A DNA stretch of 64,000 bases, taken from contig CM000431.1 in the NCBI GenBank assembly GCA_000165345.1, positions 960,001 to 1,024,000 on the forward strand, read 5' to 3'. Positions 1,910-60,857 of the stretch are shown here, piece after piece. Position numbers and translations under genes: made by a program. The notes beneath the pieces are model-generated. The model was given only the letters and a program-made list of their open reading frames with translations. It ran no database searches and was not told the origin of the DNA. Numbering within the stretch: the stretch's first letter is position 1; every line of letters begins with the position of its first letter.

Positions 1910-1925
1910 TTCCCGCCGGCGGCAA
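1910..1925. promoter_or_regulatory. E2F-like GC box (TTCCCGCCGGCGGCAA) about 360 bp upstream of the Nuf2-like gene
   Basis: A GC-rich island in AT-rich intergenic DNA. It contains TTCCCGCC (reverse of GGCGGGAA) and GGCGGCAA back to back. Confidence 0.4.
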
Positions 1926-2288
1926 CATGCAAAAATGTGGGTTTTGTGGGTTAGTGAGGGGAGAATAATCATTAAGCTAAAATATCAACAGGGAGGAATA
2001 CAAAGATAGTGAGAATTGGATCTTTGGAATAATTTTGCCACATTTTCTTTCGCTTGGCACTGTATCATCTTAGTAGGCTTTATCACGGTTGAATTTCCAG
2101 GTCTTATTATTTGATTAAAAGACAGCTTTTCGATCGATTAATTTTGAATTAATACTTGAAGCTCAGTCAAAATCCAAATTCTAAGGGTCAAGACTTATTT
2201 TCAAATAAAGGAGAGGCTAAGGAAAACTTATAAAGAGGATTTGATTAAATAATGCACTTTAGCTTTAGAGAATAAAGTAAAGTTCAAA

Positions 2289-3734
2289 ATGAGGTTGCAA
2301 TCCAAACAAAAATATCAGTTTCCTGATTTGGAGATGGGAGAGCTGATGAATGAGTTGGACATGTTAGGATTTGAAGTTGGAAGTAACTTTTGGGAAAGTA
2401 TTAACCATGAAATAGCAGTAGAACTTTATATGAACTGCTTGTCAATAGCATTAGAGATAGATACAGAGGATATTCGACCGGAAGAGTTAATAGGACAACT
2501 TCCATCTTCAGCTGCTGGAATAATATCTGAAAATGGAAAGAGTCAAATTAAACCAATAGGAAATTTGAGATTTTTACGTTACTGTAAGATCCTTTGGGTA
2601 ATGATAGGAATCGATGATTTTAGTATGAATGACATTTATAGACCAACTCCAGATAGAATTTATTCGTTCTTATGTGGATTTGTGAATTTGATGCGTTTCA
2701 AAGAAGATCGTTGGATGACTTATAAGAATGAGTTTTATGAAATTGAGGAAATTTTGGACTCTGTAGACAAATCTAATGAACAGATTAAACAAAAAAAAGA
2801 AGATTTGAATAATATTAGAGTAAGATATAACGAACAAAGTGGTGAAATTGCAAATAGGAGAAGGGATAATCAGGAATACCAGGAAAAGATGAGATCTTTG
2901 CACGGAGAATTTTTGCAAAATCAACAAGAACTTAAGAGATTAACACAGTCAGAGCATGATTTAAAGGAGCAGCTTAAAGATGTTGAGTTTAGGATTACCA
3001 CTGGAAATCAAGATATACAAGATTTAAAGGATCAAGTTGTTCAGTCCCCAGAAAGACTCAGAAATACTCTGGAAGAATTGAATAAATCTTTAGAGAATGA
3101 AAGAAAACAAATTGATCAAATTAGTATCAAAAATAATGAACTAAAGGAAAGACAAAATCTATTGCAAAAGACTGAAAAGAGGCTTGGTAAGGCAAAGACA
3201 TTCCTTGAACAAACTATTAGCGGAATTAAAGATGCAAACAATATTAAGCAATCAATCAAAGAAATCGAGCATCATATTGAGAAGGATAAATGGACAATTG
3301 AGCAAACTACAGAAGAAGAAAGGTTGCTTTTGCAAACTGTGGAACAGATTTCACTAAGAATTCAAAATAATCAACAACACTATGAGAGTTTAATTGAGGA
3401 GGCACAGACTTTACTTAATCAAGAGAAACAAAAGTTTGAGCAAGGACAGGAATTCCTTGATGTTCAAAGCAGTGAAGCATTTTCATTTGAGCGACAAGCA
3501 GAATTAATGGAAAAAGAGATCCAGAATTTAAAAGTATCTCATGAAAAGGCAATTAATGCACTCAATATTCAGCATAGCCAACTACTAAATGTTCTTACCA
3601 ATTATAAGAAACACTTAATCAGCAAACTGAATGACATAAACTCGAAGTATAACTTAAAGCTATTAGATGAAACATCCAAGGAAAATTCAACAATAAACTC
3701 TATAGAAAACACTATTGTGATGCAGCACAACTAG
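2289..3734 (+). CDS. NUF2: Kinetochore protein Nuf2-like (NDC80 complex), CH-like N-terminus plus coiled coil
   Basis: Starts at an ATG. The N-terminus (YQFPDLEMGELMNELDMLGF...ELYMNCLSIAL; DDFSMNDIYRPTPDRIYSFLCGFVNLMRFKE) follows the Nuf2 pattern (FPxL..EIV...L; DFETADIL.P...R...FLSGIINFIHFRE). The rest is a long heptad-rich coiled coil including a SPERLRN motif like Nuf2 SPEKLKN, and the length (481 aa) matches. Confidence 0.55.
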   Translation: MRLQSKQKYQFPDLEMGELMNELDMLGFEVGSNFWESINHEIAVELYMNCLSIALEIDTEDIRPEELIGQLPSSAAGIISENGKSQIKPIGNLRFLRYCKILWVMIGIDDFSMNDIYRPTPDRIYSFLCGFVNLMRFKEDRWMTYKNEFYEIEEILDSVDKSNEQIKQKKEDLNNIRVRYNEQSGEIANRRRDNQEYQEKMRSLHGEFLQNQQELKRLTQSEHDLKEQLKDVEFRITTGNQDIQDLKDQVVQSPERLRNTLEELNKSLENERKQIDQISIKNNELKERQNLLQKTEKRLGKAKTFLEQTISGIKDANNIKQSIKEIEHHIEKDKWTIEQTTEEERLLLQTVEQISLRIQNNQQHYESLIEEAQTLLNQEKQKFEQGQEFLDVQSSEAFSFERQAELMEKEIQNLKVSHEKAINALNIQHSQLLNVLTNYKKHLISKLNDINSKYNLKLLDETSKENSTINSIENTIVMQHN

Positions 3735-3945
3735 TAATTAAATTAAAAAATATATTCCAACCACTTATTTCAAATTTTATTATATTAAATCGATAAATTT
3801 AAATATAATTATAACTGTCTAAATCAATTTTTGTAATTAACTTATCCACCACTTTTCATACATTCATTCATGTTCTATTCTAACTTCCGTCAATGTTTAC
3901 CTAAATTCAGCTTTACAAGAAATGACTAAGGGGTAAAACCAATAA

Positions 3946-3983
3946 GGCGCCATTATTTGGCGGTAGACGTGGCGGCAAATTCC
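3946..3983. promoter_or_regulatory. Cluster of E2F-like boxes (GGCGCC, TTTGGCGG, GGCGGCAAATTCC) upstream of the gene at 4316
   Basis: Three GC boxes lie within 40 bp in AT-rich intergenic DNA. Confidence 0.4.
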
Positions 3984-4906: not shown

Positions 4907-5587
4907 CAGTATGGTTAATATGGAGTATTCATCATACGTAATAACAAATAGTAGTGATGATAGAAAGCTGTATATATTATATGCATGCTCTCCACTCGCT
5001 ACCGTATTTCATTTAAGAGCCAAGAAAAAAAAAATAATCAGAGTATTTCTTTTTTTTTTTTTTTTTAATTAACAATCTAAACAATCGAGTCTGAACTTCG
5101 ATATAAGCGTTGTTGAGGTGCTACTTAGCCATGAAGTATAATTACGCATGCATTAAACATTTTTATTTAATGCTTGATTTATCCAGTTCATTCAATTTAC
5201 AATGGGGAAATGTGAAGTCACAATCTAATCTTTCGAGGCTCTACTATTCAAATTTATTGATACTTAGACAGAAATCAGGCCTCCAATTAGAGCCAATAAG
5301 GTTTTGTATTCGGGTTTCTTATATGTTTGCGCGAAGTATTTATTAGAGTTCTTTTTGGTAACTTCTTTATTTACTCTTTTTTTTTGGTGTAATTAATTTA
5401 GCTCCTCTCCACACACACATGTATATCTTTTTAAATATTTCTCTCTATTCTTATCGTGTCTATTTATCTATGTTTAAAAGACTCTTAAAGCTTGTATTCA
5501 ATATCTTCTCATTCCCTTTCTCTACAAATGGTCTCTCTCTTGAACTCTCTTTAAAGTCATTTCAGACATTAAATTTTGGTCATCTCT

Positions 5588-5618
5588 GGCGCCAAACAAA
5601 GCCACATTGGCGCCAAAA
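5588..5618. promoter_or_regulatory. Two E2F-like sites (GGCGCCAAA and TTGGCGCCAAAA) about 180-200 bp upstream of the Snu114 ATG
   Basis: ctGGCGCCAAAcaaagccacaTTGGCGCCAAAAtt. These are palindromic E2F-type boxes, preceded by a long CT-rich tract (5400-5580). Confidence 0.5.
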
Positions 5619-5792: not shown

Positions 5793-8700
5793 ATGGACTT
5801 GAATGATGTGTATGATGAATTTGGTAATTATATTGTGAAAGATGATAACGACTCAGAAGGAAGCGCAGATTGGGTGGGATCCGAAGAAACTTCAGATCCA
5901 GAAGATAGCCACAACAATAAAGATGGTGAAATTTTTGATCATGCCCAAAAAGAAGAGTCTGAAGATTCAGGAAGTGATATTTTTTCTGAAAATGAGTGGC
6001 AAAAGCATAAAGGACAAGTCAAAATACTTAATAAACAAAGCATAAAAGACGAGGATCATGAAATGACTCAGGAAACTGATGATGATAATAAGATTGTGCA
6101 ATTTGAAGATAAAGAGTATTATCCAGACCCATCTGATGTATATGGTGATGACGTTGAAATATTGGTACAAGAGGAAGACCACCAACATATAGATGAACCT
6201 CTCATTTCTCCCTTAAAAGAAAACAAATTTGACTTAATTGAAAAGAACCTTAAGGAAATGGAAACAACATTTTCTTATGAATTCTTGAGAGATTTAATGG
6301 ATAATTTGGAATTTGTTAGAAATATCTGTTTTATTGGTGAAATTCATTCTGGAAAAACCACATTCTTAGATATGTTGATTAAAAATACTCATTCTTACAA
6401 AGGAGATAAGAAAAATATTCCTTTACCGGAGAGATATTGTGATTCAAGAAAAGATGAACAGGATAGAGGAATTAGTATTAAAGCTTCTCCAATATCTTTG
6501 GTACTACCAAACTCTATGGATAAATCTTTCTTATTCAATATTTTAGATACCCCTGGTCATGTTAACTTTGTGGATGAAGCATGCATTTCAGTAAGAATTT
6601 CAGAAGGAGTTATACTTTTCTTGGACTGTGTTATTGGTTTAACTAAACAATTAGAAAGATTGCTTCATTATTGCTTATCAGAAGGGAAGAAGGTTGTTCT
6701 AGTAATTAATCAAATTGACAGACTTGTCTTAGAGTGTAGACTACCTCCATATGATGCTTATTTTAAACTTAAGCATTTAATCTCTGCAGTTAATAACTCT
6801 ATTTTGGAATTTGCATCTATTCATGGATTTAATACTGATGAAACTAGAAATTTATTATTTGGTCCAGAAAGAGGTAATGTTGGATTTGCATCTGGTAGAT
6901 ATAACTTTTTCTTCACTTTAAATTCATTTGCTAGAAAGTATTTAAAACATAATGGTATTACCAATAACTGTATTCTGATTGAAAAATCTCAACAATTATC
7001 TTTCAGATTATGGGGAGATTATTATTTTAATAAAGAAAATAATTCATTTGAAACAGACTCAAATGTTTCTCAAGATAGATCTTTTGTAGAATTTATCTTA
7101 AATCCAATATATAAGTTACTTGGATATACGGTATCGGAAGAAGATGATAAATTATCAAGCTTTTTGAAGACGGTTGGAATATATCTGACAAAGAAAGAAC
7201 TTAAATTAAATGTTAAGGAACGTCTTGAAATTGTATGTAAACGTTTCTTTGGAAATTCTGCCTCATTTACTGACTTTATCACAAAAAATATCCCAAATCC
7301 TATTCAAAGTGCTAGTGATAATGTTGAGAGAATATATACTGGGCCAATTAATGATAGAATATCATCATTTATGAGAAAATATGAAAGAAATAATTGTCCT
7401 TTAGTTGTTTTTATTATAAAACAATTCCACTCTGAAGATATGGAATCATTTTACTCATTTGGAAAGATATTTTGTGGGACTTTATCAAAAGGTGATCGTG
7501 TTAAAGTTCTAGGTGAATCTTTTTCCAAAGATGATCCTGAGGATTTTACTACGAGATATATTGATAATCTTTGGATCTTACAAAGTAGGTATAAAGTAGA
7601 AGTTACAAGTGTACCTGCAGGAAATTGGGTACTAATTTCAGGTCTTGGAAGCTCTGTAACAAAACCATGTACATTAATTGGACATAATTCATTTATTAAG
7701 GATGATGAAATATATCCTTTACGTAATATTAGGCTTTTGAATAAGAGTGTAATAAAGTTAGCTCTTGAACCACATAATCCAGCAGATTTACCAAAAATGC
7801 TTGAAGGGTTAAAAAGTATTTCAAAAGCTTACACATGTTCAGTGACAAAAGTAGAGGAGAATGGAGAACATGTTATGTTTGGTACAGGAGAATTACAGAT
7901 GGATTGTATGATGCATGATTTAAGATGTTTATATGGAAATTTGGATGTAAAAGTTTCAGATCCAATGGTACATTTTTGTGAGACTGTTTTAGAGAAATCA
8001 GTAGTGAAATGTTTTGGAGATTCAACTAATGGATTGAATAGACTTTATATTACATCAGAACCTTTAGATCGAGGTATTTCAGATGAATTGGAGAATGGTA
8101 TAATGAAAGTTTCAATTTCAGATACTAAAGATCCAAAATATTATGGTAATTTATTAGCAGAGAAATATGGTTGGGATAAGCTTGCAGTAAAGTCATTATG
8201 GGCATTTGGACCAGATCCTAGCATAGGAAGTAATGTTTTATTGGATGATACTTCTTCTATAACAGTTGATAAAAAACTTTTATATGATGTTAAGGATGAT
8301 ATAATTCAAGGATTTAACTGGGCAGTTAAAGAAGGTCCTTTACTTGAAGAGCCAATAAGAAATGTAAAATTTAAGATACTTGATGTAAACTTATCTTCTG
8401 ATAAAGTTAGTAGGGGGACAGGGCAAATAGTTCCAGCATCTAGAAGAGCTTGTTACACATCGATGTTTTTAGCATCTCCAAAGATTTTGGAACCAATTAG
8501 TCTAGTAGAGATAATATGCCCATCAGGTTTGGATGAATTTATTAATAATATAGTATCAAAAAGAAGAGGCCATGCAGGCAAGGAAATTCCAATTCCTGCT
8601 TCACCATTAGTTACAATACTAGCATTTGTTCCAGCAATAGAAACCTTTGGATTTGAAACAGATTTAAGAATTCATACAAGCGGACAAGCATTTTGTACAA

Positions 8701-8900
8701 GTTGTTTCGACCACTGGGCAATAGTTCCAGGTAATCCATTGGATAGGAATATTTCATTAAGACTTTTAGAGAAAGCTCCTATTCCACATTTAGCTAGAGA
8801 TTTTCTTCTTAAAACAAGAAGAAGAAAAGGTCTAAGTGATGATGTTAATATTCAAAACTTTATCACTTGTCCAGAACTTATTAAAGCTTTGAATTATTAA
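5793..8900 (+). CDS. SNU114: U5 snRNP 116 kDa GTPase Snu114/EFTUD2 (EF-2-like)
   Basis: The N-terminal YDEFGNYI motif and acidic domain are characteristic of Snu114. The G domain has GKTTFLDML, DTPGHVNFVDE and INQIDRL. EF-2 domains II-V are conserved throughout (LWGDYYFN, SFVEFILNPIYK, PAGNWVLI, KLALEPHNPADLPKMLEGLK, GEHVMFGTGELQMDCMMHDLR, AFGPD, GQIVPASRR, FLLKTRRRKGLSDDV). Confidence 0.88.
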   Translation: MDLNDVYDEFGNYIVKDDNDSEGSADWVGSEETSDPEDSHNNKDGEIFDHAQKEESEDSGSDIFSENEWQKHKGQVKILNKQSIKDEDHEMTQETDDDNKIVQFEDKEYYPDPSDVYGDDVEILVQEEDHQHIDEPLISPLKENKFDLIEKNLKEMETTFSYEFLRDLMDNLEFVRNICFIGEIHSGKTTFLDMLIKNTHSYKGDKKNIPLPERYCDSRKDEQDRGISIKASPISLVLPNSMDKSFLFNILDTPGHVNFVDEACISVRISEGVILFLDCVIGLTKQLERLLHYCLSEGKKVVLVINQIDRLVLECRLPPYDAYFKLKHLISAVNNSILEFASIHGFNTDETRNLLFGPERGNVGFASGRYNFFFTLNSFARKYLKHNGITNNCILIEKSQQLSFRLWGDYYFNKENNSFETDSNVSQDRSFVEFILNPIYKLLGYTVSEEDDKLSSFLKTVGIYLTKKELKLNVKERLEIVCKRFFGNSASFTDFITKNIPNPIQSASDNVERIYTGPINDRISSFMRKYERNNCPLVVFIIKQFHSEDMESFYSFGKIFCGTLSKGDRVKVLGESFSKDDPEDFTTRYIDNLWILQSRYKVEVTSVPAGNWVLISGLGSSVTKPCTLIGHNSFIKDDEIYPLRNIRLLNKSVIKLALEPHNPADLPKMLEGLKSISKAYTCSVTKVEENGEHVMFGTGELQMDCMMHDLRCLYGNLDVKVSDPMVHFCETVLEKSVVKCFGDSTNGLNRLYITSEPLDRGISDELENGIMKVSISDTKDPKYYGNLLAEKYGWDKLAVKSLWAFGPDPSIGSNVLLDDTSSITVDKKLLYDVKDDIIQGFNWAVKEGPLLEEPIRNVKFKILDVNLSSDKVSRGTGQIVPASRRACYTSMFLASPKILEPISLVEIICPSGLDEFINNIVSKRRGHAGKEIPIPASPLVTILAFVPAIETFGFETDLRIHTSGQAFCTSCFDHWAIVPGNPLDRNISLRLLEKAPIPHLARDFLLKTRRRKGLSDDVNIQNFITCPELIKALNY

Positions 8901-9577: not shown

Positions 9578-9943
9578 TTTTATTTATTCCTCTTCACAAA
9601 CTAAGATCTGAGTCTTGAAATTATTTTAACTTTTTTCTTTTAGATAACTTATTTCAATTTCTTGAAACTCGTCTTGTTTAAGAATAATTAGTTATTTCCC
9701 AATAATTTGTCTAATTGGACTCGCGCCATAAACAAAAAAATATAAATTCTTTTTTCTTTTAAAATTATTATTTAATTAAATGTATAATATATGATGTATA
9801 TATATTTTATATATAAATATATATAAAATATATATTATAAATTTGTACCTGAATTTTTTTTTGTGTATTATAATCTCTATAGACTATTACTATTTATTTA
9901 TTCTTCGCGTCTCATTTCTTTTATAATAATTAAAAACAAAATA

Positions 9944-9977
9944 CCGCCAAAACTAGACACGTGTATTGGCGGGTTTT
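9944..9977. promoter_or_regulatory. E2F-like sites (CCGCCAAAA; TTGGCGGGTTTT) flanking an ACACGTGT palindrome in the eL30/repeat-protein divergent promoter
   Basis: ataCCGCCAAAActagACACGTGTaTTGGCGGGTTTTatttgg. Confidence 0.4.
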
Positions 9978-10360
9978 ATTTGGAAATTACTTAAAAATAT
10001 TGCTAGTGGCGATAATATTTTACATGTAAAAAAAAAACAGAGCACACTAAAATACTTGTAAAGGGGGGAAATAGAAAATAAAAAAATTATAAATAATTTT
10101 TTAAAAATAAGAAAAGTGGTGCATTTGATTGAAAAAAAGAACTTTATTCCGAGATTATGATGTTGTTGGTGTTCTTGACTAATTCAGAATAAGAAGAAAG
10201 TGTTAATTTAGGAAGAAACCTACAGAAAGGGTCGAATTAAATATAATAAATAAGTAATTAATTATTATTGGAAGGATAATTGTGCGAAGTTTATGAAATT
10301 AGAGGTCAATACGAATTAATTTTGAGTTTTTATCATTATCATTGAATTAAAGTAATAGTC

Positions 10361-13300
10361 ATGAATTTAACCAATGAGAATATTTCAAACCAGGGCCAGG
10401 AGATTTCAAGGAATGGGAATTTTGAGATAATTGATAATGGGAAATCCGAAGATAATAGTAAGGAAATAATTCTTGAGAAATGTAGGGTAAAAGTTTCTTC
10501 AGATGGAGTTTATGAATCATTGCCAGTTGAAAGAAAAAGTATCGATGCTAAATCCAGTGAGAAGGCAAGCGATAAAATTCAAGGGGATACTGTTTTTGAA
10601 GTTTTACCTAGATCAGAGTCTAATGCAGATGCAAGTTATAATAAAGCTGGTGACTTTGTTAATGATATCGGGATTTTTGAGTCATTACCAAAATCAACTT
10701 CTGATGCTGATTATAAGTATAATGAAAGGGTGGATATTACACAAGATAGGATTGTTTTTGAAGTATTACCACGCTCTGATAATATTGTTCACTATGATAA
10801 TGACACCAGTAATGAATCTTCTATTAAAGTAAATGAAATGATTAAAAAGAAGGAGTCAGAATTGAATAATATTTTAAAAGAGCAGAAAATTGATGGAGAT
10901 ATTACTAGTAGAAATGGGAATATAGAAAATGATCCTACTTTAGGTTTAAGTATTTATAACGAAGAATCAGTTTCTCCTCCATCTGAAACTTCGATGACCA
11001 TTTTTGAGAATTTACCAATTAAGAAAGAAAATATCGATATCGATAACGAGTTTCAATCAAATTCTATTTTATCAGACAATAATATAATTGAGAATCATCA
11101 ATCAATTTTTGAAACTGCAAACTTGTCCAGATCAAATAGTTCTTCTCATATTTCTAGCTTAAAGGATGGTGAGGAAGCTGAAAGACTAACGAGTAATGAA
11201 GTGAGTGAGCATAGTGAAATTAGTAATGATGAATGCGAAAAAGATCTAAAAAGTAATTTTGAGCTTAATAATCAATTAATTACTGATTTTAATCAAGATG
11301 TAAAAACTCAAGATAAAAAAGAGCTTTCACCACAAGTTGAGAGCAAAGCAAATCTTAATATTGTTGTAAATAGTGAGAAGTCGGTCTTTGAGGTAGTTCC
11401 ATCTGAACAATCAAGAGCTGATATTGGGTATAATTCCAAAATACCACTAAGTTTTGATGAAAGGACGGTTTTTGAATCAAAGCCTGTAGCGAATTCAAAT
11501 GCAGATGTTAGCTATAATTCAAAGGTTGGTATCACAAAAGCAGAAGAAAGGTCAGTATTTGAGTCATGTCCAATTACTGATTCGAAGGCAGATGTTAGTT
11601 ATAATTCAAAATTTCAGCCAAGAAAAGACGAAAAAATTATATTTGAATCGAATCCAATTGCTAACTCGAATGCAGATGTTGGATACAATACAAAAATTGG
11701 CTTAGAAAGACAGGAAAAGTCAACTTACGAATCAATCCCTACTATCGGGGTAGTAGCAGATGTTAGCTACAAATCCAAAGCACAAACTAATTCTGGAAAT
11801 GAAAAGTCTATTTTTGAATCTGTTCCAATTTCCAATTCAATAGCTGATGTCAGTTATAATTCTAAATCACAGCCTATTAAAGAAGAAAAGGTTGTATTTG
11901 AATCAATTCCATCAGAAAATTGTAAGATAGATGTGAGTTATAATTCCAAGTTGGATTTGAAAGGACAGGAAAAGTCAGTATTTGAATCCAATCCTATGAT
12001 GACTTCCAATGCTGATGTAGGTTACAATTCAAAGCCAGAAATAAATTTGAATGAGAAATCCGTCTTTGAGTCGGTTCCATCCAATATTTCAAAAGCCGAT
12101 GTGAGTTATAACTCGAAAATAACTAATACTTCTGAGAAGTCAATCTTTGAATCGGAGCCAATAAAAAATGTTAATATAGACGTGAGTTATAATTCCAAGT
12201 TGGATTTGAAAGGACAGGAAAAGTCAGTATTTGAATCCAATCCTATGATGACTTCCAATGCTGATGTAGGTTACAATTCAAAGCCAGAAATAAATTTGAA
12301 TGAGAAATCCGTCTTTGAGTCGGTTCCAACCAATATTTCAAAAGCTGATGTGAGCTACAACTCTGTAGTAGCCAATACTTCTGAGAAGACCATTTTTGAG
12401 TCAGAACCAAGAAGGAACTCAGTGGCGGATGTAAGCTATAACTCCAGTTTGATTCCTATTTCTAAGGATGAAAAGACTGTATTTGAATCCAATCCAAATG
12501 TTGATTCAAAGGCAGATGTTAGTTATAATTCTAAAATAGAATTAAAAAAAGACGAAAAGTTTGTATTTGAGTCAAATCCTAATGTTGATTCTAATGCAGA
12601 TGTTAGTTATAATTCAAAGCTTCAGCCAAGAAAAGACGAAAAATTCATATTTGAATCTAATACGACAGTTAACTCTAAGGCAGATGTTAGTTATAATTCA
12701 AAATCTGAACCTAAAATGAACGAGAAGTCCGTATTTGAGTCCAGTCCAATTCTTAGCTCAGTTGCAGATGTTGGGTACAACACCAAAGGAGTTGGTATGA
12801 CTCAAGAAAAATCTGTCTACGAATCAGTTCCAATTAGTAAATCTAAAATAGATGCTGGCTATGATACAAAGTTGGACTTTACTCATGAAAATAATAAAAC
12901 TATATTTGAATCAAACCCATCTTGTGAATCTATTGCGGATGTTGGATATAATTCAAAGATTGAAACAAGAACAGAAGAAAAATCAGTTTATGAGTCAAAT
13001 TACGATAAAGTTTCTAAGGCTGATGCTAGATATAATTCAGATTCAAGCCAAATCTATCCTCCAGAGAAGATGGTATATGAATCAACTCCTGTTGTTGGAT
13101 TAGCTGTGGATGCAAGGTTTGCAGATCAAAACAATACAAACGAAGAGAAGCAAACAGTTTTTGTATCTCTTCCAAGGTCTGAGTCAGTTTTTGATGCAAG
13201 CTACTCGTTAAATAATGAATATAGGCAGGAAAAGACAATATTTGAGTCAGTACCCAATACAAAAGGGATCAGAATAGATGCAAGATCCAGTGATACCTCT

Positions 13301-13384
13301 GAAATAATGAATTTTCAGTCTAAGACAGTTTTTGAATCAGTACCCAAACAGTCTTATGCTGATGCAAAAAGCGGGAATATATAG
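10361..13384 (+). CDS. Large tandem-repeat protein with ~28 copies of a 27-28-aa VFESxPxxxSxADVSYNSK unit; no signal peptide
   Basis: ATG at 10361. The first ~330 aa are acidic/Asn-rich with a few degenerate repeats. From about aa 335 there are contiguous repeats with consensus EKSVFESxPxxxSxADVSYNSKxxxxx, degenerating toward the C-terminus. I recognise no homolog. Confidence 0.6.
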   Translation: MNLTNENISNQGQEISRNGNFEIIDNGKSEDNSKEIILEKCRVKVSSDGVYESLPVERKSIDAKSSEKASDKIQGDTVFEVLPRSESNADASYNKAGDFVNDIGIFESLPKSTSDADYKYNERVDITQDRIVFEVLPRSDNIVHYDNDTSNESSIKVNEMIKKKESELNNILKEQKIDGDITSRNGNIENDPTLGLSIYNEESVSPPSETSMTIFENLPIKKENIDIDNEFQSNSILSDNNIIENHQSIFETANLSRSNSSSHISSLKDGEEAERLTSNEVSEHSEISNDECEKDLKSNFELNNQLITDFNQDVKTQDKKELSPQVESKANLNIVVNSEKSVFEVVPSEQSRADIGYNSKIPLSFDERTVFESKPVANSNADVSYNSKVGITKAEERSVFESCPITDSKADVSYNSKFQPRKDEKIIFESNPIANSNADVGYNTKIGLERQEKSTYESIPTIGVVADVSYKSKAQTNSGNEKSIFESVPISNSIADVSYNSKSQPIKEEKVVFESIPSENCKIDVSYNSKLDLKGQEKSVFESNPMMTSNADVGYNSKPEINLNEKSVFESVPSNISKADVSYNSKITNTSEKSIFESEPIKNVNIDVSYNSKLDLKGQEKSVFESNPMMTSNADVGYNSKPEINLNEKSVFESVPTNISKADVSYNSVVANTSEKTIFESEPRRNSVADVSYNSSLIPISKDEKTVFESNPNVDSKADVSYNSKIELKKDEKFVFESNPNVDSNADVSYNSKLQPRKDEKFIFESNTTVNSKADVSYNSKSEPKMNEKSVFESSPILSSVADVGYNTKGVGMTQEKSVYESVPISKSKIDAGYDTKLDFTHENNKTIFESNPSCESIADVGYNSKIETRTEEKSVYESNYDKVSKADARYNSDSSQIYPPEKMVYESTPVVGLAVDARFADQNNTNEEKQTVFVSLPRSESVFDASYSLNNEYRQEKTIFESVPNTKGIRIDARSSDTSEIMNFQSKTVFESVPKQSYADAKSGNI
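11370..13380 (+). repeat. Coding tandem repeat array (unit ~81-84 bp) of the VFES-repeat gene, including a near-perfect duplication 11933-12079 vs 12182-12328
   Basis: A 147-bp stretch (gtgagttataattccaagttggatttgaaaggacaggaaaagtcagtatttgaatccaatcctatgatgacttccaatgctgatgtaggttacaattcaaagccagaaataaatttgaatgagaaatccgtctttgagtcggttcca) occurs twice, exactly identical and 249 bp apart. Flanking similarity extends further. Confidence 0.8.
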
Positions 13385-15852: not shown

Positions 15853-15864
15853 TTGGCGCCTTTT
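15853..15864. promoter_or_regulatory. E2F-like site TTGGCGCCTTTT about 250 bp upstream of the P4H-domain gene
   Basis: GC box within AT-rich DNA immediately 5' of the minus-strand gene start. Confidence 0.4.
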
Positions 15865-17742: not shown

Positions 17743-17753
17743 TTGGCGCCAAT
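17743..17753. promoter_or_regulatory. Palindromic E2F-like site TTGGCGCCAAT about 150 bp upstream of the Has1 helicase start
   Basis: ccaTTGGCGCCAATatt. Confidence 0.45.
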
Positions 17754-18138: not shown

Positions 18139-18156
18139 CCCGCCTAGGCGCCAATT
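18139..18156. promoter_or_regulatory. E2F-like sites CCCGCC / TAGGCGCCAATT upstream of L27a
   Basis: tttaCCCGCCtaGGCGCCAATTcc, about 340 bp 5' of the L27a ATG. Confidence 0.45.
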
Positions 18157-19114: not shown

Positions 19115-20282
19115 ACATATAGGCTAGAATATGTAAAGGGTGGTTTATCAATAATCATCTTTGAATAACTTGTATTTAATCCAGAGTTCAAACATCTAGA
19201 AGCTTTAGTGTATAATTACTATAGCCTAACAAGTTATAGTAATATATTCATTCAGCTTGAAATATTTTTTTTTAACCACCCTTTTATTTTGGGAGATTAC
19301 TATATTTAGTCTTCTCCTTTATTTTAAAGGAGAGATGCACTTTACTATGGACAATACAAGTCTTTGAACATTATAACTAGTAGTGGTGCTGCTTTTATTT
19401 TCTACTATGAACTTAAAATCTAGTACATTATTTCTATATGTTTTTTACTCCTATCTTTTCTTCCCTTTCTTCAAACTAACTAGTACTCTTGTCTAAGTTA
19501 TTGTCCATGAATTTAAAGAGGAATTAATTTTGCCGCCCATACATTCAATCAGGTGTGCATATTATTTAATATAATTATTATTTGAATTATATACATGCAT
19601 TATTTTAGAGTTCTTTTTTCAAAAAAAGTGTCATTTTAATCTTTTATTAACATTCTAATTAATACAAACCTTTGTTATCTTAATAATATACATGTAATAA
19701 TTCTTACTTGTCAATTTTACGAACATATTTAAACTCCTTGCATGATTTTTAGTGGCTTAGATCTATTATTAAGGTATCTAGCGCCAACCTCTAATCCGAG
19801 AAGAGGACTTTAGGCGGACAAAAATAATTATGTTTTTTTGAATAAGTTAAATTGTTGGCAAAAAAAAAAAAAAAAAAGGTTAAATCAGTATTGACTTTTG
19901 GTTATTATAAAATAACTTTTTTTTTGAAATTCAGGTTCATATATCAAGTATTCAACAAAAGTTTATATGGACAGTCTTTGTGAGTATTATTTCAAAACTT
20001 ACAAGTAATTAATAAGTTTCGAAGGAATTAAAAGTTTGCATTACATTTGTACATAATTAGAAAAACAATTCTATAAACTATAAGGTATTCTTTATAAATA
20101 TCTTAATAGAGGGATACAATATATATATTAATAAAGAGATTCAAAGAAATAGGTGGATAACCTGAACGCAAATCTCATTTTGACGAGATTTTTCCAACGT
20201 TAATTATTTTTTCCATTATTTACTCGAATTTTTTTTTGCCGTCCATTTCATTATAGAATAAAATTTAAAAAAAGAAAGAAAA

Positions 20283-22825: not shown

Positions 22826-23466
22826 TTTTGACTCTAATACTATTCTTTATATTATTAATAATTTTAAAAATCTTGTATAATTTTGTTTGTTGATTGTAAA
22901 CAATTAATTCAAGATTATACCTTTTTTTTTAACAAGCCTAATAAACAAAATTACAAGCTTTTATTATGAATTCTTGAACTTTATCTCTATTTATATGAAA
23001 TTTAAATAAATATTATTTATAATATAAATTTAAATAATATTTATATTTTTTTATTAGATCGAGTTTATGACGTAATTATTATTATTTTTTTTTTTAAATA
23101 ATTTATTGCCATTACGTGTCCCGTTTTACCGGCATGTAAATCTTAAACTGGTTTTCCCCCCACTTGCAAGGGAAAAAATTAATAACATTACACGTAATAA
23201 AAATATTAATAGTTTTGTGGGAAAAAAAAAATTGGAAATTATAATATAGACTAAGACTAATTAAATTCAAGAACTATCTATGATGTACTGAGTTTTTCTT
23301 TTTTACCAAGAAAAATTTCTGTTTGAAGTTTGAATTAAGTAATTCTTTTCAATAGTGCATTTTGGAGGGATTTACTTACCTACCTTAAATATATATTAAT
23401 CAATTAATGTATAACAGTCTATTACTAAGATTTATTAACAATTAGATATTGAAATTTCAAAGGTAA

Positions 23467-26398: not shown

Positions 26399-27326
26399 GT
26401 TAATCATCCTCTTTTTCAACATTTCTATAAATAAATATTATACATATGATAATATATTAAACAATGTTCAAATAAATATAAACAAATCATTATAGAATTT
26501 ATTACTCTGAATTATATCAATTAAACTAATGCTTGATATTTATATTTTATTTTATTTTTCTTCTGCCTATAAATTCCACGTGTATAAATATTGTAATTTA
26601 ATAGATATATAATGCTTAAATTTGTTTCATAATTCTTCCTTCTATTTGCTATTATTAAAACTGTAATCGAAATAAAAAAAAAAAATCACTTATTTTTTTT
26701 TCTAATAATACCAATGGACATAGAGAATTAACAATTAAAGAAAAAAAGGTGTTTATAATATATTATTTCATGTTAAATTAGCATTTGCTGTAAGAAAGAA
26801 AAAAAAATTGCATGAATAGGCGGTAACATACATGTAATTTTTTTTTCCTATAAATATATTTTAATTTAAATTTTTTATTTGATCATCTTTATTAGCTATT
26901 AATGTAAATTAAAAAAGATACGTTTATGCTTTAATAGTTATAGTTCATTGTTAATATATTACTTAACTCATCAATAGTTTTAAAAGAGTCATAATATTAT
27001 AAATCTCAACAAATCACTTTCTTCATTCCCCTCCCCATTTTCCTTTTATATTTAACATAAATAAAATAATGTAAATGAGGTTATTTGGCGGTAAAATTTT
27101 AAAATATGTAATATTTTAATATAGACGTAAATAAATAGTAATAAAGCAAGTTCAAGGGAAAATTCTGAAAATATTTGGATAATCTAGAAAGTAATTTTGG
27201 AATAAAGTGTTAAAACTGTGCTTTGAAGAATTGTAAATATATTTATATAAATACATATATATATTTTCTTTTTTCTTTTTTTGTAGGTTAAGAGTGGTTT
27301 AATGAGTAAAGTAGGGAATTTTTAAA

Positions 27327-28192: not shown

Positions 28193-30592
<2,400 letters not shown>

Positions 30593-33806: not shown

Positions 33807-33819
33807 CGTAAACTGTTTT
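33807..33819. promoter_or_regulatory. Palindromic E2F-like site TTTTGGCGCCAATT about 140 bp upstream of CacyBP
   Basis: ctgTTTTGGCGCCAATTcat. Confidence 0.45.
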
Positions 33820-34165
33820 GGCGCCAATTCATATTTGAGTAAAAAATTTTTAAAAAATCATGCAAGGAGTGAATATATAATGTGAGAAAATATTATTTGA
33901 TCAAATATTGATTAAATGGTTTGTGATAAATGCGAAATAAACATAGTAAAACAAACAGAATGTGTAATTTGCTATCACTTAGAGACTTTAGGCAAGAATA
34001 TCGAAAATACTTATATAGTAAACTGCGAACAAAATCGTAAAAATAAGATTTAATAATTAAAGAAAGGATTTAAAGTTTCTGAATAATGAAACTAATTTTA
34101 AAGCCAAAAGTGATAATATAAAGCAAAATTGACTATAATAATTGCAAAATTCTCTAATGAATTAA

Positions 34166-34855: not shown

Positions 34856-36026
34856 TTTGAGTAAAAATAGATTTAAGATCAGCTCCTCGTCTTGATCAAT
34901 AACTGACTTTTTATAAATTTGTATTATTCCCAGGTTCAAACAAAAACCGAAATTTTATACCTGAGTATCTTCTCCAACTAGTCCTTTAAAAAATATAAAT
35001 TTGGACAGATTATAAAAATTTGACAAATTTCTATTTTTTAAAAAGTGAATTTTATCCTTGGAAGTAATTATCAATTTCTTTAAATAATTATTTATATTAC
35101 TTTTTAATACTATAACTATCAAACATTTCAGAAATTGTTAGCAAGTTGCAATAAGACCTATTTAATACGCCTAATTTGACTTTAAATAATTAATTGTAAT
35201 TATTAATCTCTTTTTATTAATTAATAATTTATTTGTCAATTTATATTGTGTTTATGTGGGCGCCAATAAATTATTAGAAATTTGAATTAATAGAACATGA
35301 AAATTATTAAAAAGACAAGATTTATCAACAAGTAATAATTAAACACTTGTTCTTATAATAGTTTGTATAAGGAATATTACAGTTTTTTGTTTATTAGTAT
35401 ACATTCTTATTTTTTTAACTTCTAAATTAATTTTGAATGTGCTGATTGCCAATTAGTAACGCACACTTAGTTGCTTTTTATTGCTACCCTATAAAAACAT
35501 TATTTTCTCTTTAACTAAAAATCTGAGAAGGTATTTAATCATGCTTTTTAGTTTAACAGAAATGTATGAACCATTCTGCTCCATAAAAAAATAAGGAAGG
35601 TTTTTTAAAAAAAAAAGAAACAACACCGATTATTAATTAGATATTATGATGGGTAGTATGCAAGTAACACTACTGGACTTCGTATAAAATATTTCAAGAT
35701 ATAGTTTTAGAGAACCTAGTTGAAAAAAGCTAGAAGGTTAATATAATGAATCTGAAATTTTTTCTAAATCATATTCATCTAATAAAATAATTAATATAGT
35801 ATAAGAAAATTGTTGCCTTTTTTCTAAAAGAAATAAAAAAAACTCTATCCATAATTAAATACTTGTATATTAAATAGATATTTTAAACTATAAGCTATAT
35901 TAGCTTGATAACAGTATTCTCCAACTTAATTAGACTAGCGCTAGCTAAGTTATTAATATTAATACAAAATAATATATATTGTGTGCGTGTGTTTTTTTTA
36001 AATAAACTTATCCTAAATGGCTAATA

Positions 36027-36079
36027 TTTCCCGCCTATATGAAATAATTAGAGGCTACATAAAGTTGGCGGGCAGGCGG
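36027..36079. promoter_or_regulatory. E2F-like sites (TTTCCCGCC; TTGGCGGGCAGGCGG) in the eIF3k/TMBIM divergent promoter
   Basis: GC boxes about 250-290 bp upstream of the TMBIM ATG. An additional GGGCGCCAAT lies at 35258-35267. Confidence 0.4.
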
Positions 36080-37250: not shown

Positions 37251-37287
37251 GGCGCGCCAAAATTTACGTTGTGTGTTCCCGCCAATT
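37251..37287. promoter_or_regulatory. E2F-like sites GGCGCGCCAAAATTT (with 8-bp GGCGCGCC palindrome) and TTCCCGCCAATTT upstream of the Pro-rich gene
   Basis: tcgttcgGGCGCGCCAAAAtttacgttgtgtgTTCCCGCCAATTTgc, about 230 bp upstream of the ATG at 37510. Confidence 0.45.
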
Positions 37288-38449: not shown

Positions 38450-38967
38450 AGAGAAACTGTTATTTAAAGTTAAGAAAGGTTTTTTAATTCAAATTTTAAT
38501 TTAAGTTATAAAATAAATCCAGTAAAAAAAAATATTTTAATTTATCCTAAATTTTATACTTTTTTTCATTTATCTTTCTTTTTACTAATTTCTTAATTAA
38601 TTTTGTCACTATTATTTTTTTGCATGTGGACAAATTACTAATCATAATTACCATACCGGTTTTGTAATATATTACTAATACCGTGCATAATTCATGCGGC
38701 AAAATTATGATATTAAAAATAATAATAAAAAATTTGCATGTCATAGATTAAAGAGCAAGTGGATGAATTTATTTGGAATTAATGGTGGAATTTTAAGGAG
38801 AATTGGTTTGAGATTTGGTGTGAGATATTGTTTTTTGTATAATTAAAGAAAGTGTTCAAATACTAGAATTTTGTAAAAAATATAAAACAAAATAAAAATA
38901 AATTCTGTAAAAATTAGTGGAAATACATTGGAAAAAGTGAAATAAGAAAAAATCTTTATTATTTACT

Positions 38968-40095: not shown

Positions 40096-40105
40096 TTGGC
40101 GGAAA
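40096..40105. promoter_or_regulatory. E2F-like site TTGGCGGAAA about 130 bp upstream of the HIRA-like gene
   Basis: aaatgTTGGCGGAAActatg. Confidence 0.4.
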
Positions 40106-44305: not shown

Positions 44306-44317
44306 GCGGGAAATTCC
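44306..44317. promoter_or_regulatory. E2F-like site GCGGGAAATTCC about 200 bp upstream of the MFS transporter gene
   Basis: agacaGCGGGAAATTCCaat. Confidence 0.4.
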
Positions 44318-47506: not shown

Positions 47507-47866
47507 ATTTATATTGTCCAATAAGATTAAATAATGATGAAATTATTGATCCAAATTAAGAATTACGTTGGAAATCAATTGTGTGTACTTTCTTTTTGAT
47601 TTTAAAGATGTAATTTAAATTTCATAATTAATTAACGAATTTTTTTTTCTTTTCTTAATACACCCAATTTTAAGCTAAAAAAAAATTTCCAGGTTGAAAA
47701 CTCTCAGGGTCGGAAAAATTTATTGTTTTGCTTATAAAGCGAGAGGGGGGAAATTGTAATAAATTAATCTAAAAATAATTAAACCAAAAATATTAAAGAA
47801 TAATATAATACAGTTTTTTTAAAAAAATTATACATTAAAATATTTATATATTTAAACTAGAATTTA

Positions 47867-56713: not shown

Positions 56714-56734
56714 AGGCGCCAAAAACTTTGGCGG
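56714..56734. promoter_or_regulatory. E2F-like sites GAGGCGCCAAAAACTTTGGCGG in the UBR/NSA2 divergent promoter
   Basis: Two GC boxes on opposite orientations within 21 bp, about 240 bp upstream of the NSA2 ATG and 210 bp upstream of the UBR ATG. Confidence 0.45.
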
Positions 56735-56970: not shown

Positions 56971-57753
56971 ATGCCTCAGAATGAATATATTGAATTACAC
57001 AGAAAACGCCACGGATATAGGTTTGATCACTTTGAAAAGAAAAGAAAGTTTGAATCACGAAAAGTCCACAAAGATTCTCAACATGCTCAAAAACTCAGAG
57101 GTATAAAGGCTAAGCTTTACAATAAGAAGAGATATGCTGAAAAGGCCACTTTGAGAAAGTTAGTCAAAGCTAACGAGGAGAAAGATGCAGTTGAAAAGGA
57201 CCCAGAAAATGTACAGAAAGGTGCAGTTCCATCATACTTGTTGGACCGTGAGGGAGTTAATCGAACAAAGATTCTAAGTAATATGATAAAGCAGAAAAGA
57301 AAGGAAAAATCTGCAAAGTGGCAAGTACCTATTCCAAAAATTAAGGCTTTGAATGAAGATGAAATGTTCAAAATCTTAAGAACTGGTAAGAGACAGAAGA
57401 AATCATGGAAGAGAGTTGTCAATAAAGTTTGTTTTGTCGGAAATGACTTTACTAGAAAACCACCAAAGCTCGAGAGATACATTAGGCCAACTGGGCTAAG
57501 ATTTAAAAAGGCTCATGTTACACATCCAGAACTTAAGACCACTTTTTACCTTGATATTGTTTCCATCAAGAAAAATCCACAAAGTCAACTATATACTACA
57601 TTAGGTGTAATTACTAAAGGTACTATAATTGAAGTAAATGTTAGTGAACTAGGTCTTGTTACACAAACCGGTAAAGTTGTATGGGCAAAGTATGCTCAGG
57701 TAACTAATAATCCAGAAATTGATGGTTGCATTAATGCTGTTTTATTAGTTTAA
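56971..57753 (+). CDS. NSA2: Ribosome biogenesis protein Nsa2 (TINP1; S8e-like)
   Basis: [26 protein letters not shown]..., [18 protein letters not shown] and the C-terminal S8e-like region are collinear with yeast and human Nsa2. Length is 260 aa. Confidence 0.88.
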
Positions 57754-58039
57754 TTCAATACTATGTAACAAGGTTTATTATTAGATGGCAATACTAAGGT
57801 AAATTCACAAAATATATGATTTAGTCATTTTAATTTATATTAATTCTCGGATTAATTTTTTTTTTAATTTTCATTTTTGACCGGTACCTTATAATTAATA
57901 AATTAAAAATACCGGCGAATTTAGCCCCACTAATAATCAGAAAATACTCCAAAAAAAAGACATTTTCTTTCTTTCAATCTAAATAGCTTTTACAATGAAA
58001 TAAAATTCAAAAATAAATCTTCTTCGTCAGTCAAAGAAC

Positions 58040-60139
58040 ATGAAACCTAGCTTAGAATGTAAGCTTCTTTTAAAAACGAACACATACTTACCAGAGATAC
58101 CTACTTACTGGCTGGACTCTACAAATTTTCCAACATTTGATAGTGATACGTACGAAATTAAATCCAAAGAGATTAATGCCATAGATGCAGTTATTGATTC
58201 TACACAGATAGGTAACGGGCCCTTCACTTCTGCATGCTATAGTGAAGATGGAGAAATTTTGGCAGTGTCCAATTTAGAAGGGATTTATATATTAGGGTCT
58301 TATACTAGAACCTGTTTTGCAGCAATTCCATTTGGTTTATTGAAAAAAGAGCTTAAAATTGAAGACTCTGTGCTTCTTATTTGCAATGACATTTATATCT
58401 TTGGAAGAAACTGCTTACTTGGAGCCTTATTTAGTGAACATATTGTTTTCTGGGATTTATTCTCAAAGAAATTCAATAACTACGAATGCTATCTCCCAAA
58501 TTTTATTGGATCATTTAGTAATAAAGATCTTTTTCTGCATATCAATCAAAAGCAACAACTCTATAATTACCTACCACCTCAATACTTTAATATGATTGAT
58601 CCTGGAGACTTTGAAAGAAATAAATTTGTTTCAATTCAAGGAATTAAAACAAATCATGAAAAGGATGCCACTAAAACTGAGAGCCAAAATACGATCATTA
58701 TTGAATTTGTGCTTGAACTCTTCAACTCTTTGCCACTACTTGTACAAACAAAAACCAAATATATTACTCAAAATGAATTAAAAAATGAACTTTTAGATAA
58801 ATCATCAATTCAACAAGAATTTGCAATCCATTCTGTATCTTCAATATTTCCAGATTATATGTTGAATAATACTTCAACAAAATATGTAGACTTTAAAAAC
58901 AACAATAAATTGGTTTCTTTGGCTGTTTTTGAGAAGGAAGGACGTAGGGTTTATTCAAGTTTCGTTATAATTGGTGAAACAAATATATTACTTGTTTTTG
59001 ATGAATTTAAAACCATTCTTTCGCTAAAAACAATTCCGAGCTATGGAAAAAGGCATAACAAGTATCTTTATAGCTGTAATTTACAGTTTAACAAAGATGG
59101 AGATATTTTAGTATTACAGTACTCTGATAGGTTTACTGTTTATTCATTGAAACAAATAGATGACTCGAAATCTAGAGATAATTTTAGAGCAGATTCTGAC
59201 TTAAAACAGGTAAATGATTTGACTGAAAGTGAAAACTATAACGATACTGATGATGAAAGTGATCAAGAATATTTAACAGTATTGGGAATTAAATCTGAAA
59301 AATATGTTCCAACTATTAAGATTAAGCTACTCTACTCATATTCTCAAGTCATTCAAAAGGAATGGATTACTTCTATTTCTATATATAATGAAAAAATGTA
59401 TGACTCTCATCAAATTTGCACTGACAAGCTTTATGGTCCAATTAGTCAACTATACCCATGCGGTGTTTTGGCTATAACTACAATATCTTCAAATGGCCAA
59501 TCTTTTTATTACTTAATGAAAACTTGCTCTAACTCGGATGATAGAAGTTACGTTTCAAATTCTTTAAATATCAAGTGCGATCATTATTGTAATGATAATA
59601 CAGGATCAAATATGATAATTTGGAAGTTGGAGCTGACAAAGCTTAACGGAGTTAGAAAAATAATCTGGCAACCAGGAGATTCTATTTGTTTAGCAATTCA
59701 ATTTTCTGAAAGGCTTAAGAATACTAAACTCATGTATGATGACTACTATGAAATGAACAGTAAAAATGCGAGTTTATTAACTCATATAGATAAAAATAAT
59801 ATCTTTGGAAAAATATTCTTTATAGATTCTAGGTGTTCAAATGATGATATGTTACTTTGGTCGAGGTTGATGGAGGACTTTATTGCAATTCATAAAAACA
59901 AAGAATATATAGAGAAAGAGGATGAATTTGACAAAGTGGATGAGAAACAAGACGATTCAGAACTTGATGAAATTAAAAAGACTTTTCTTGATGAGTATTA
60001 TAAAGTAGTTTCAAAGCAAGACACACACCAACAAGGTTATAATGAAATACAAATACAAAAATTCTCGGAAGACTTACATGAGTTTAATAAGAATTTGGAT
60101 AAGAAAGTCTATTGGTTTGATATAAACAGAAAGGTTTAA
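58040..60139 (+). CDS. Hypothetical protein (699 aa), possibly beta-propeller-containing; function unknown
   Basis: Clean ATG ORF with no recognisable catalytic motif. Moderate complexity with scattered WD-like hydrophobic patterns. Confidence 0.45.
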   Translation: MKPSLECKLLLKTNTYLPEIPTYWLDSTNFPTFDSDTYEIKSKEINAIDAVIDSTQIGNGPFTSACYSEDGEILAVSNLEGIYILGSYTRTCFAAIPFGLLKKELKIEDSVLLICNDIYIFGRNCLLGALFSEHIVFWDLFSKKFNNYECYLPNFIGSFSNKDLFLHINQKQQLYNYLPPQYFNMIDPGDFERNKFVSIQGIKTNHEKDATKTESQNTIIIEFVLELFNSLPLLVQTKTKYITQNELKNELLDKSSIQQEFAIHSVSSIFPDYMLNNTSTKYVDFKNNNKLVSLAVFEKEGRRVYSSFVIIGETNILLVFDEFKTILSLKTIPSYGKRHNKYLYSCNLQFNKDGDILVLQYSDRFTVYSLKQIDDSKSRDNFRADSDLKQVNDLTESENYNDTDDESDQEYLTVLGIKSEKYVPTIKIKLLYSYSQVIQKEWITSISIYNEKMYDSHQICTDKLYGPISQLYPCGVLAITTISSNGQSFYYLMKTCSNSDDRSYVSNSLNIKCDHYCNDNTGSNMIIWKLELTKLNGVRKIIWQPGDSICLAIQFSERLKNTKLMYDDYYEMNSKNASLLTHIDKNNIFGKIFFIDSRCSNDDMLLWSRLMEDFIAIHKNKEYIEKEDEFDKVDEKQDDSELDEIKKTFLDEYYKVVSKQDTHQQGYNEIQIQKFSEDLHEFNKNLDKKVYWFDINRKV

Positions 60140-60234
60140 AGCAATATAGTACCTAATTAGCTGTATATATATACATTTATACAGTCCTTAATAAATTATT
60201 ATTAATTATACAATTTACTATTTAATGTTGAAAT

Positions 60235-60570
60235 TTACTCTTTTAACAACTCCTTATATCTTTGATTTGGTATTAAGAATAAATTAAAATCATTATTGAC
60301 TGCACAACTTGGATTCTCCATTTTAATCATATTTCTCAAGTTTTCATCCCTAATAACAAATCTACCATCTTCTGTTGTCTCTATACTTTTCTTTAAACAT
60401 TCTTCGATAAATTTTTGTCCTAAAATTGAAACAATTGAAAACAAATTAGGGTCTGATGACTTTGCACCTTGCCTATTCATAATATACTCAACACACTCCT
60501 TTGGGAAGATTATGCTTTCTATCTTTGCCTCGTCTGATTCTGTATTTGCAGATTTTCCTGGTAGTGTCAT
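60235..60570 (-). CDS. TAF13: TAF13-like histone-fold protein (TFIID subunit 13 / SPT3-family fold)
   Basis: IFPKECVEYIMNRQG...DPNLFSIVSILGQKFIEECLKKSIE..EDGRFVIRDENLRNMIK parallels human TAF13 (LFSKELRCMMYGFGD...ESVDILEDLVIEFITEMTHKAM..GRQGRVQVEDIVFLIRKD). Confidence 0.5.
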   Translation of the reverse strand: MTLPGKSANTESDEAKIESIIFPKECVEYIMNRQGAKSSDPNLFSIVSILGQKFIEECLKKSIETTEDGRFVIRDENLRNMIKMENPSCAVNNDFNLFLIPNQRYKELLKE

Positions 60571-60716
60571 TCTTCCTTTCTATTAAATTTATTATTGGCT
60601 AAAAACAAAATAATGAATAAATTCAGTAAAGCAAGTCTGACTATATGCAACAGTACCCACTAATATTTACCCTAAACCGTCATAAGTTAATCCTGTGTTC
60701 CATTCCTTAATATAAA

Positions 60717-60857
60717 TTTCCCGCAATTAAAATAATTAGTTCTTAGAAAATATAAATTAATTTGTTCAACATTTCCCGCATTACTCATTTTTTTTAAATT
60801 ATTAGAATTGCAAAAAATGTCACAGAAAATTGAGAATGGTGGCGCCAATGGCGGCAA
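60717..60857. promoter_or_regulatory. Cluster of E2F-like sites (TTTCCCGCAA 60717-60726; TTTCCCGCA 60772-60780; GGCGCCAATGGCGGCAA 60841-60857) in the TAF13/APC4-like divergent promoter
   Basis: Three GC boxes lie within 140 bp of AT-rich intergenic DNA between two divergently transcribed genes. Confidence 0.45.

Follow-up and report, generated by a model that had tools for sequence, protein, structure and literature searches.

E2F-type boxes recur in the promoters of a 64-kb region of Cryptosporidium parvum chromosome 3

The locus and its boxes

The stretch analyzed here, referred to as the window, comprises 64,000 nucleotides of Cryptosporidium parvum DNA (GCA_000165345.1, contig CM000431.1, positions 960,001 to 1,024,000 of the forward strand), in which short GC-rich boxes resembling the binding sites of E2F/DP transcription factors recur upstream of genes. 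Cryptosporidium is among the main causes of diarrhoea in children, and little is understood of how it regulates its genes. The window lies on chromosome 3, approximately 75 kb from one chromosome end, and corresponds approximately to cgd3_3800 to cgd3_4100. The original prediction, which was made from the letters alone, had suspected a Cryptosporidium-type apicomplexan as the source, and proteins encoded in the window bear this out, being 100% identical to proteins of C. parvum Iowa II and IOWA-ATCC. The Snu114/EFTUD2 protein (5793-8900) has 100% identity to Snu114p of C. parvum Iowa II, an identical copy of the Nuf2-like protein (2289-3734) is encoded on the 1.10-Mb chromosome CP044420.1 of assembly GCA_015245375.1, which publications assign to C. 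parvum, and the gene at 30605-32134 clusters with a member carrying the locus tag CPHLJ_3g3990 (chromosome 3, equivalent to cgd3_3990).

The window has a GC content of approximately 30% and contains long, densely packed open reading frames (ORFs), mostly without introns. Intergenic DNA was defined by ORFs and then by called gene models, including the intron-containing genes for RPL27A, Cnd2 and proteins of 260 and 869 amino acids (aa). It makes up approximately 23-27% of the window and has a GC content of 25%, compared to 34% in coding DNA. The gene models give 29 intergenic regions, 22 of which are promoter-bearing (tandem or divergent) and 7 convergent, i.e., terminator-only. None of the genes encoded in the window is an E2F or DP gene, and Rfam and tRNA scans detected no RNA genes in the long box-bearing spacers. 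One of the larger proteins, of 1007 aa (10361-13384), has no genuine domain match; its Pfam matches RseA_C and SH3_YKFC_2nd lack any independently passing stretch and look like low-complexity artefacts, and the length of its orthologues varies between species from 835 to 1064 aa.

The boxes found in the window are as follows.

1910..1925: TTCCCGCCGGCGGCAA, two overlapping inverted half-sites, 379 bp upstream of the Nuf2 ATG (2289)
3946..3978: triple cluster GGCGCCA/TTGGCGG/GGCGGCAA, 345-370 bp upstream of the 196-aa gene (4316)
5329: weaker box GCGCGAA, upstream of Snu114/EFTUD2
5587..5616: pair TGGCGCCAA and TTGGCGCCAA, 21 bp apart, 186-206 bp upstream of Snu114/EFTUD2 (5793)
9944..9972: inverted pair CCGCCAA ... 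TTGGCGG, in the divergent promoter of L7Ae and the 1007-aa gene
15853..15860: TTGGCGCC, approximately 250 bp upstream of a 2OG-Fe(II) oxygenase gene on the minus strand (ATG 15605)
17743..17752: palindrome TTGGCGCCAA, approximately 155 bp upstream of a DEAD/SPB4 helicase gene (ATG 17593)
18140..18154: CCGCC and GGCGCCAA, approximately 350 bp upstream of RPL27A (18494)
19530..19817: TTGCCGCC at 19530, GCGCCAA at 19781 and GGCGG at 19813, 470-753 bp upstream of the 439-aa gene (20283)
27085..27091: TTGGCGG, 242 bp upstream of a PUA/MCT-1 gene (27327), with a bare GGCGG at 26819
30274..30281: GGCGCCAA, inside the 3' end of the 799-aa coding sequence, 331 bp upstream of ATG 30605 (cgd3_3990)
approximately 30557-30569: TTTGCGCGCGCAA, within the 799-aa coding sequence, 45 bp upstream of ATG 30605
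33818..33827: palindrome TTGGCGCCAA, approximately 150 bp upstream of a CS-domain gene on the minus strand (ATG 33672)
35259..35266: GGCGCCAA, approximately 410 bp upstream of a CSN8/eIF3K-like gene on the minus strand (ATG 34855)
36028..36079: TTCCCGCC, TTGGCGG and GGCGG, 247-294 bp upstream of a Bax-inhibitor gene (36322)
37251..37285: GGCGCGCCAA and TTCCCGCCAA, 25 bp apart, 234-256 bp upstream of the corrected ATG of the 260-aa gene (37510)
38696..38702: weak box GCGGCAA, 272 bp upstream of a cyclin gene (38968)
40096..40102: TTGGCGG, 135 bp upstream of the 1317-aa gene (40231)
44306..44312: GCGGGAA, 213 bp upstream of a sugar-transporter gene (44519)
56715..56734: GGCGCCAA and TTGGCGG, 15 bp apart, in the divergent promoter of UBR and NSA2 (S8e-like), 219-256 bp from both ATGs
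60718..60857: four boxes, TTCCCGC twice, TGGCGCCAA and GGCGGCAA, in the divergent promoter of TAF10 and the 869-aa gene

All boxes that the original prediction had listed are present, including GGCGCGCC at 37251, and only two positions need adjusting: the box given at 33807 starts at 33818-33820, and 3983 is the end of the range 3946-3983, which holds GGCGCCA, TTGGCGG and GGCGGCAA.

Aligned, the 34 intergenic half-sites give the logo wTTGGCGCCAAw, with the half-palindromic variants TTGGCGG and TTCCCGC. This fits the E2F/DP consensus of a symmetric SGCGCS core with a T-rich 5' flank and an A-rich 3' flank, and the boxes also fit the plant E2F forms. The canonical sites in the literature are TTTSSCGC, the symmetric TTTSGCGCSAAA and, in Arabidopsis, TTTCCCGCC and TTTGGCGGG (PMC3734150), and the assignment of the boxes to the E2F/DP type is thus upheld.

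Excess, placement and conservation

The boxes exceed chance expectation by a wide margin. Compared to 500 dinucleotide-preserving shuffles of the intergenic segments, GGCGCC occurs 10 times (0.11 expected), TGGCGCC 15 times (0.10 expected), TTGGCGS 23 times (0.49 expected) and GCGGGAA 6 times (0.27 expected), and for each word none of the 500 shuffles reaches the observed count. Boxes of the forms TTGGCGCCAA, TTGGCGG and TTCCCGC are 30-90 times as frequent in intergenic DNA as the shuffles predict. An unbiased k-mer ranking leads to the same words: poly-A aside, the highest-ranking intergenic 8-mer is GGCGCCAA/TTGGCGCC (12 observed, 0.02 expected), and together with its sub-words it ranks directly behind poly-A among all 6-, 7- and 8-mers.

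The excess is specific to intergenic DNA. An intergenic-versus-coding k-mer count with a shuffle control had been proposed as a check, and on the window it gives 24 intergenic and 2 coding occurrences of TTSGCGS, i.e., a 33-fold density ratio, and 10 intergenic occurrences of GGCGCC against 1 in coding DNA. The control GC words GGCC, GGGCCC, GCGCGC and GGATCC have no such bias. Coding sequence does not avoid the boxes, as it holds 5 compared to a codon-permuted expectation of 3.8, and the contrast is therefore an intergenic excess and not coding avoidance. The view that the boxes are not due to chance holds on both counts, the shuffles and the unbiased control words.

Other words are also over-represented in the intergenic DNA. 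Poly-A/T runs are strongly so (AAAAAAAA, 135 observed and 13.5 expected), and the k-mer ranking also brings up the G-rich words GGGGGGAA and GAGGGG. These probably correspond to the poly-T motif found in peaks of the assay for transposase-accessible chromatin (ATAC) and to the published G-box.

Boxes are present in 16 of the 22 promoter-bearing regions and in none of the 7 convergent ones (Fisher p = 0.0011), in line with the predicted promoter specificity. The number of box-bearing promoter regions becomes 17 if the intragenic GGCGCCAA at 30274 is included. The boxes had been expected in nearly every promoter. Their recurrence stands, but "nearly every" is too strong for about three quarters (16/22), with five promoter regions box-free.

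Within promoters, the half-sites concentrate 100-400 bp upstream of the served ATG, as predicted (30 of 34, compared to 52% if positions in these regions are drawn at random). The 100 bp closest to the ATG contain none (21% under the same null, p = 5e-4), and the median distance is 234 bp, all distances being measured to the ATG. Asymmetric half-sites have no orientation bias relative to the gene in tandem promoters (8 versus 12). The suggestion that boxes are often paired or placed in divergent promoters was likewise confirmed: 10 of the 16 box-bearing promoters contain at least two cores, adjacent cores lie within 40 bp of each other in 9 cases compared to 3.8 expected (p = 0.004 under a conservative null), and 5 of the 6 divergent promoters carry boxes.

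Comparison loci were found through Snu114 orthologues in C. canis, C. felis, C. ryanae and C. xiaoi (80%, 70%, 61% and 60% protein identity, respectively) and are fully syntenic with the window. Orthologous promoters carry boxes in all four species. Across the five Cryptosporidium species, i.e., including C. parvum, none of the 10 convergent spacers contains a box, and boxes exceed the dinucleotide shuffles in each species at intergenic GC contents from 25 to 42%, the four species other than C. parvum spanning 28-42%.

Two entire orthologous spacers were aligned over the five species without anchoring on the boxes, with mean column identities of 53% and 45%, and the longest invariant islands of both alignments are boxes. 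The spacer between L7Ae and the 1007-aa gene contains the invariant island CCCGCCAAAAC ... GGCGGGyTTyATTTGGAAA, and in the spacer upstream of the 196-aa gene TTGGCGGyAAGACrTGGCGG is invariant. Box columns are invariant in 12 of 20 and 13 of 22 cases, compared to 77 of 763 and 48 of 559 for other columns (p ~1e-7 and 1e-8), i.e., approximately 60% of box columns and 9% of the remaining spacer. The boxes are thus under purifying selection across the five species.

Pair spacing is conserved as well. The 21-bp spacing upstream of Snu114 is common to C. parvum and C. canis, pairs in the Nuf2/196-aa spacer are 12-13 bp apart in all five species, and the arrangement TTGGCGG-N5-TGGCGG (3957-3976) has constant spacing across the five. 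Among individual boxes, TTGGCGCC (15853) is retained in C. canis, C. felis, C. ryanae and C. xiaoi, and CCGCC with GGCGCCAA (18140..18154) in C. canis, C. felis and C. ryanae. The palindrome TTGGCGCCAA (17743) is retained in C. canis and C. felis, while C. ryanae has TGGCGCCA.

The alignments also revealed conserved sequence of other kinds. In the promoter of L7Ae and the 1007-aa gene, the non-E2F islands TTTGTCTA (9706-9713) and TTyATTTGGAAA (9975-9986) are invariant in five species, the latter adjoining the GGCGGG box on its 3' side, and an ACGTG-containing element between the boxes at 9944-9972 is partly conserved. The syntenic locus of C. canis is GC-richer (coding 51%, intergenic 42%) than that of C. 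parvum (34% and 25%). Its Nuf2/196-aa spacer contains long TA/TATAC microsatellite-like tracts, with the E2F boxes and their spacing still kept.

No excess was detected at the orthologous locus of Toxoplasma gondii, a species reported to be without E2F/DP that served as negative control, where TTSSCGS occurs 18 times (15.6 expected) and TGGCGCC is absent (1.6 expected) in 15 kb of non-genic DNA. That Cryptosporidium keeps E2F/DP and Plasmodium does not, as the original prediction stated, is the published view; Cryptosporidium is described as the sole apicomplexan genus to retain them, with Plasmodium and others lacking them (PMC3734150; PMC4117751; PMC12246861), and the result from T. gondii agrees. 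The motif excess therefore co-occurs phylogenetically with reported E2F/DP, being present in five Cryptosporidium species and absent from the single T. gondii locus.

Promoters without boxes and a box in coding DNA

With every CpG inspected, E2F-like sequence is absent from five promoter regions (22826-23466, 27867-28192, 32135-32373, 47507-47866 and 57754-58039). The first of these is the divergent promoter of the UBA-PUB gene and the gene for condensin Cnd2, which is box-free although Cnd2 is mitotic. It contains the CpG cluster TTACGTGTCCCGTTTTACCGGCATG (23111-23135), which may be an alternative promoter element.

The GGCGCCAA at 30274 is the sole GGCGCC in the coding DNA of the window. The ATG at 30605 is only 12 bp past the upstream stop, and this box therefore sits where a promoter box would be expected. 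The surrounding segment (27327-32736) consists of four genes on the same strand, encoding the PUA/MCT-1 protein and proteins of 799, 509 (cgd3_3990) and 120 aa, separated by gaps of 326, 12 and 239 bp. Some annotations place the start of cgd3_3990 33 codons later, giving a protein of 476 aa. All three gaps are box-free, and the only boxes are either upstream of the first gene (27085) or inside the 799-aa coding sequence. Such an arrangement may reflect either a polycistronic unit or a promoter lying within coding sequence.

A similar arrangement is found at 56971-60139, where the NSA2 (S8e-like) gene and the downstream gene for a 699-aa protein, a TFIID subunit according to the C. hominis and C. 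tyzzeri annotations, have a box-free spacer of 286 bp between them. They are possibly a second case of co-transcription, driven by the divergent promoter at 56715-56734.

Readings of the boxes and comparison with known systems

We interpret the boxes as cis-regulatory promoter elements of C. parvum, namely the published E2F motif, most likely bound by E2F/DP, and assign this reading a probability of roughly 0.8. Both the physical binding by E2F/DP and an activating role are inferred. In such a mechanism, E2F/DP winged-helix heterodimers would bind the boxes, each half of the SGCGCS core accommodating one subunit. The bound heterodimers would mark the promoter and open it approximately 150-400 bp upstream of the start codon, driving transcription either to one side or to both. 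As the core is a palindrome and has no orientation bias, a single box or pair can serve a divergent gene pair. Moreover, boxes at approximately three quarters of the promoters, including those of splicing, ribosome biogenesis, ribosomal protein, transport, kinetochore and TFIID subunit genes, point to a general promoter element and not a switch restricted to the cell cycle.

Published work provides candidate factors as well as the motif. C. parvum is listed with two E2F genes (cgd1_1560 and cgd6_1430) and two DP genes (cgd7_3650 and cgd8_1850) (PMC12246861; bioRxiv 10.1101/2025.01.17.633476), and a 2025 review describes E2F as the most abundant transcription-factor site (PMC12246861). The parasite appears to run most promoters on an ancient E2F/DP family lost by other apicomplexans, so that E2F/DP could plausibly act as a master regulator and might be targeted by drugs.

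Some points weigh against this interpretation. In the literature searched, we found no report of direct E2F/DP binding in Cryptosporidium by chromatin immunoprecipitation, CUT&RUN, electrophoretic mobility shift assay or protein-binding microarray, and the 2025 review states that functional validation is missing for most Cryptosporidium regulatory components (PMC12246861). Unlike the canonical E2F regulon, the box-bearing genes are not a cell-cycle set, and the Cnd2 promoter is box-free. In addition, the distances of the boxes refer to the ATG and not to the transcription start site, and the Toxoplasma control consists of one locus.

A reading in which E2F/DP does bind the boxes, but mainly as a constitutive, chromatin-opening and often bidirectional housekeeping code, has a real though less than even chance of being correct. 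Timing would then come from other motifs such as AP2 sites and the G-box. The service of approximately 75% of promoters and of very diverse genes fits this, as do the missing orientation bias and the boxes in 5 of 6 divergent promoters. Clusters of genes with the E2F motif peak at any of seven sampled time points (PMC3734150), and a 2025 preprint reports E2F1 as the leading motif of sporozoite ATAC-seq peaks and of polycistron intergenic spacers (bioRxiv 10.1101/2025.01.17.633476). However, the same preprint finds E2F and DP transcripts to be enriched in the early asexual stages, an indication of some dependence on stage.

Boxes that lie close together in conserved pairs and triplets could also form a distinct composite architecture that needs two cooperating E2F/DP dimers, or E2F/DP with a partner; alternatively, the boxes could have a reader other than E2F/DP. 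TTGGCGG-N5-TGGCGG at 3957-3976, the 21-bp pair of Snu114 and the inverted pair flanking the ACGTG element at 9944-9972 may be examples. We regard this as unlikely, but if true, such an architecture would constitute a promoter class not described for E2F elsewhere.

It is rather improbable that the boxes are genuine selected elements read by another factor (another ApiAP2 domain, a zinc-finger or some other protein), their likeness to E2F sites being coincidental. Such a reading would accommodate both the lack of a published binding assay tying Cryptosporidium E2F/DP to the motif and served genes that are not a cell-cycle set, and Oberstaller et al. (2013) caution that motif presence does not prove factor binding (PMC3734150). 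Against it, the boxes match the full symmetric 10-bp consensus and also the two half-site forms regarded as classical, TTTCCCGC and TTGGCGG. When C. parvum AP2 domains were assayed on protein-binding microarrays, the motifs obtained were TGCAT, CACACA and the G-box, and not the E2F motif (PMC4117751). Furthermore, the excess tracks the only apicomplexan genus reported to keep E2F/DP (PMC12246861) and is absent at the Toxoplasma locus.

Finally, a compositional or mutational by-product without sequence-specific function (e.g., biased gene conversion or leftover CpG-rich islands within AT-rich spacers) has next to no probability. Any GC-rich word is conspicuous in intergenic DNA of 25% GC, but the shuffles never attain the observed counts, the enrichment does not extend to other GC hexamers, boxes are absent from convergent spacers of equal composition, and species with 25-42% intergenic GC retain the exact words at orthologous sites between diverged flanks; together, these results rule out such an origin.

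The reading of the boxes as E2F/DP-bound promoter elements can be compared with two known systems. The sites of animals and plants share with the window boxes the core, the flanks, the palindromy or half-palindromy, the orientation independence, the promoter-proximal position and the frequent pairs. However, the animal and plant sites mark a cell-cycle and DNA-replication regulon under Rb-family pocket proteins, whereas the window boxes are found at approximately three quarters of promoters in all functional classes. They are not concentrated at cell-cycle or DNA-replication genes, being also located upstream of Snu114, L7Ae, RPL27A, NSA2, a sugar transporter and a Bax inhibitor. Orthologues of Rb are reported absent from apicomplexans (PMC3734150).

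The closer system is the upstream E2F motif of C. parvum itself. The motif was first reported on chromosome 6 (Bankier, 2003, as cited in PMC3734150), and genes of replication and glycolysis were found to have upstream motifs with CGCCAA and GGCG cores (Mullapudi et al., 2007; PMC1779779). Oberstaller et al. (2013) gave the motif its name E2F, identified it (5'-TGGCGCCA-3') as the most overrepresented upstream motif of C. parvum and gave the words TGGCGCCA, [C/G]GCGC[G/C] and GGCGGG (PMC3734150), and the motif was later found upstream of 161 of 200 co-expression clusters (Oberstaller et al., 2014; PMC4117751). The window boxes agree with it in organism, words, upstream location and proposed trans-factor. 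They are the already published E2F motif; the finding is correct, brings no new concept and has its value as a clean local confirmation of the published working model. What it adds locally, and what the accessible parts of the published accounts do not contain, are the box-free convergent spacers, the exclusion from the last 100 bp, the excess of close pairs, and the base-level conservation of boxes and pair spacing across five species. The evolutionarily invariant sites at, for example, 3957-3976, 5587-5616 and 9944-9972 would be good substrates for binding and mutagenesis work. Collectively, the window boxes represent one chromosome-3 sample of the genome-wide C. parvum E2F pattern, from which nothing essential differs.

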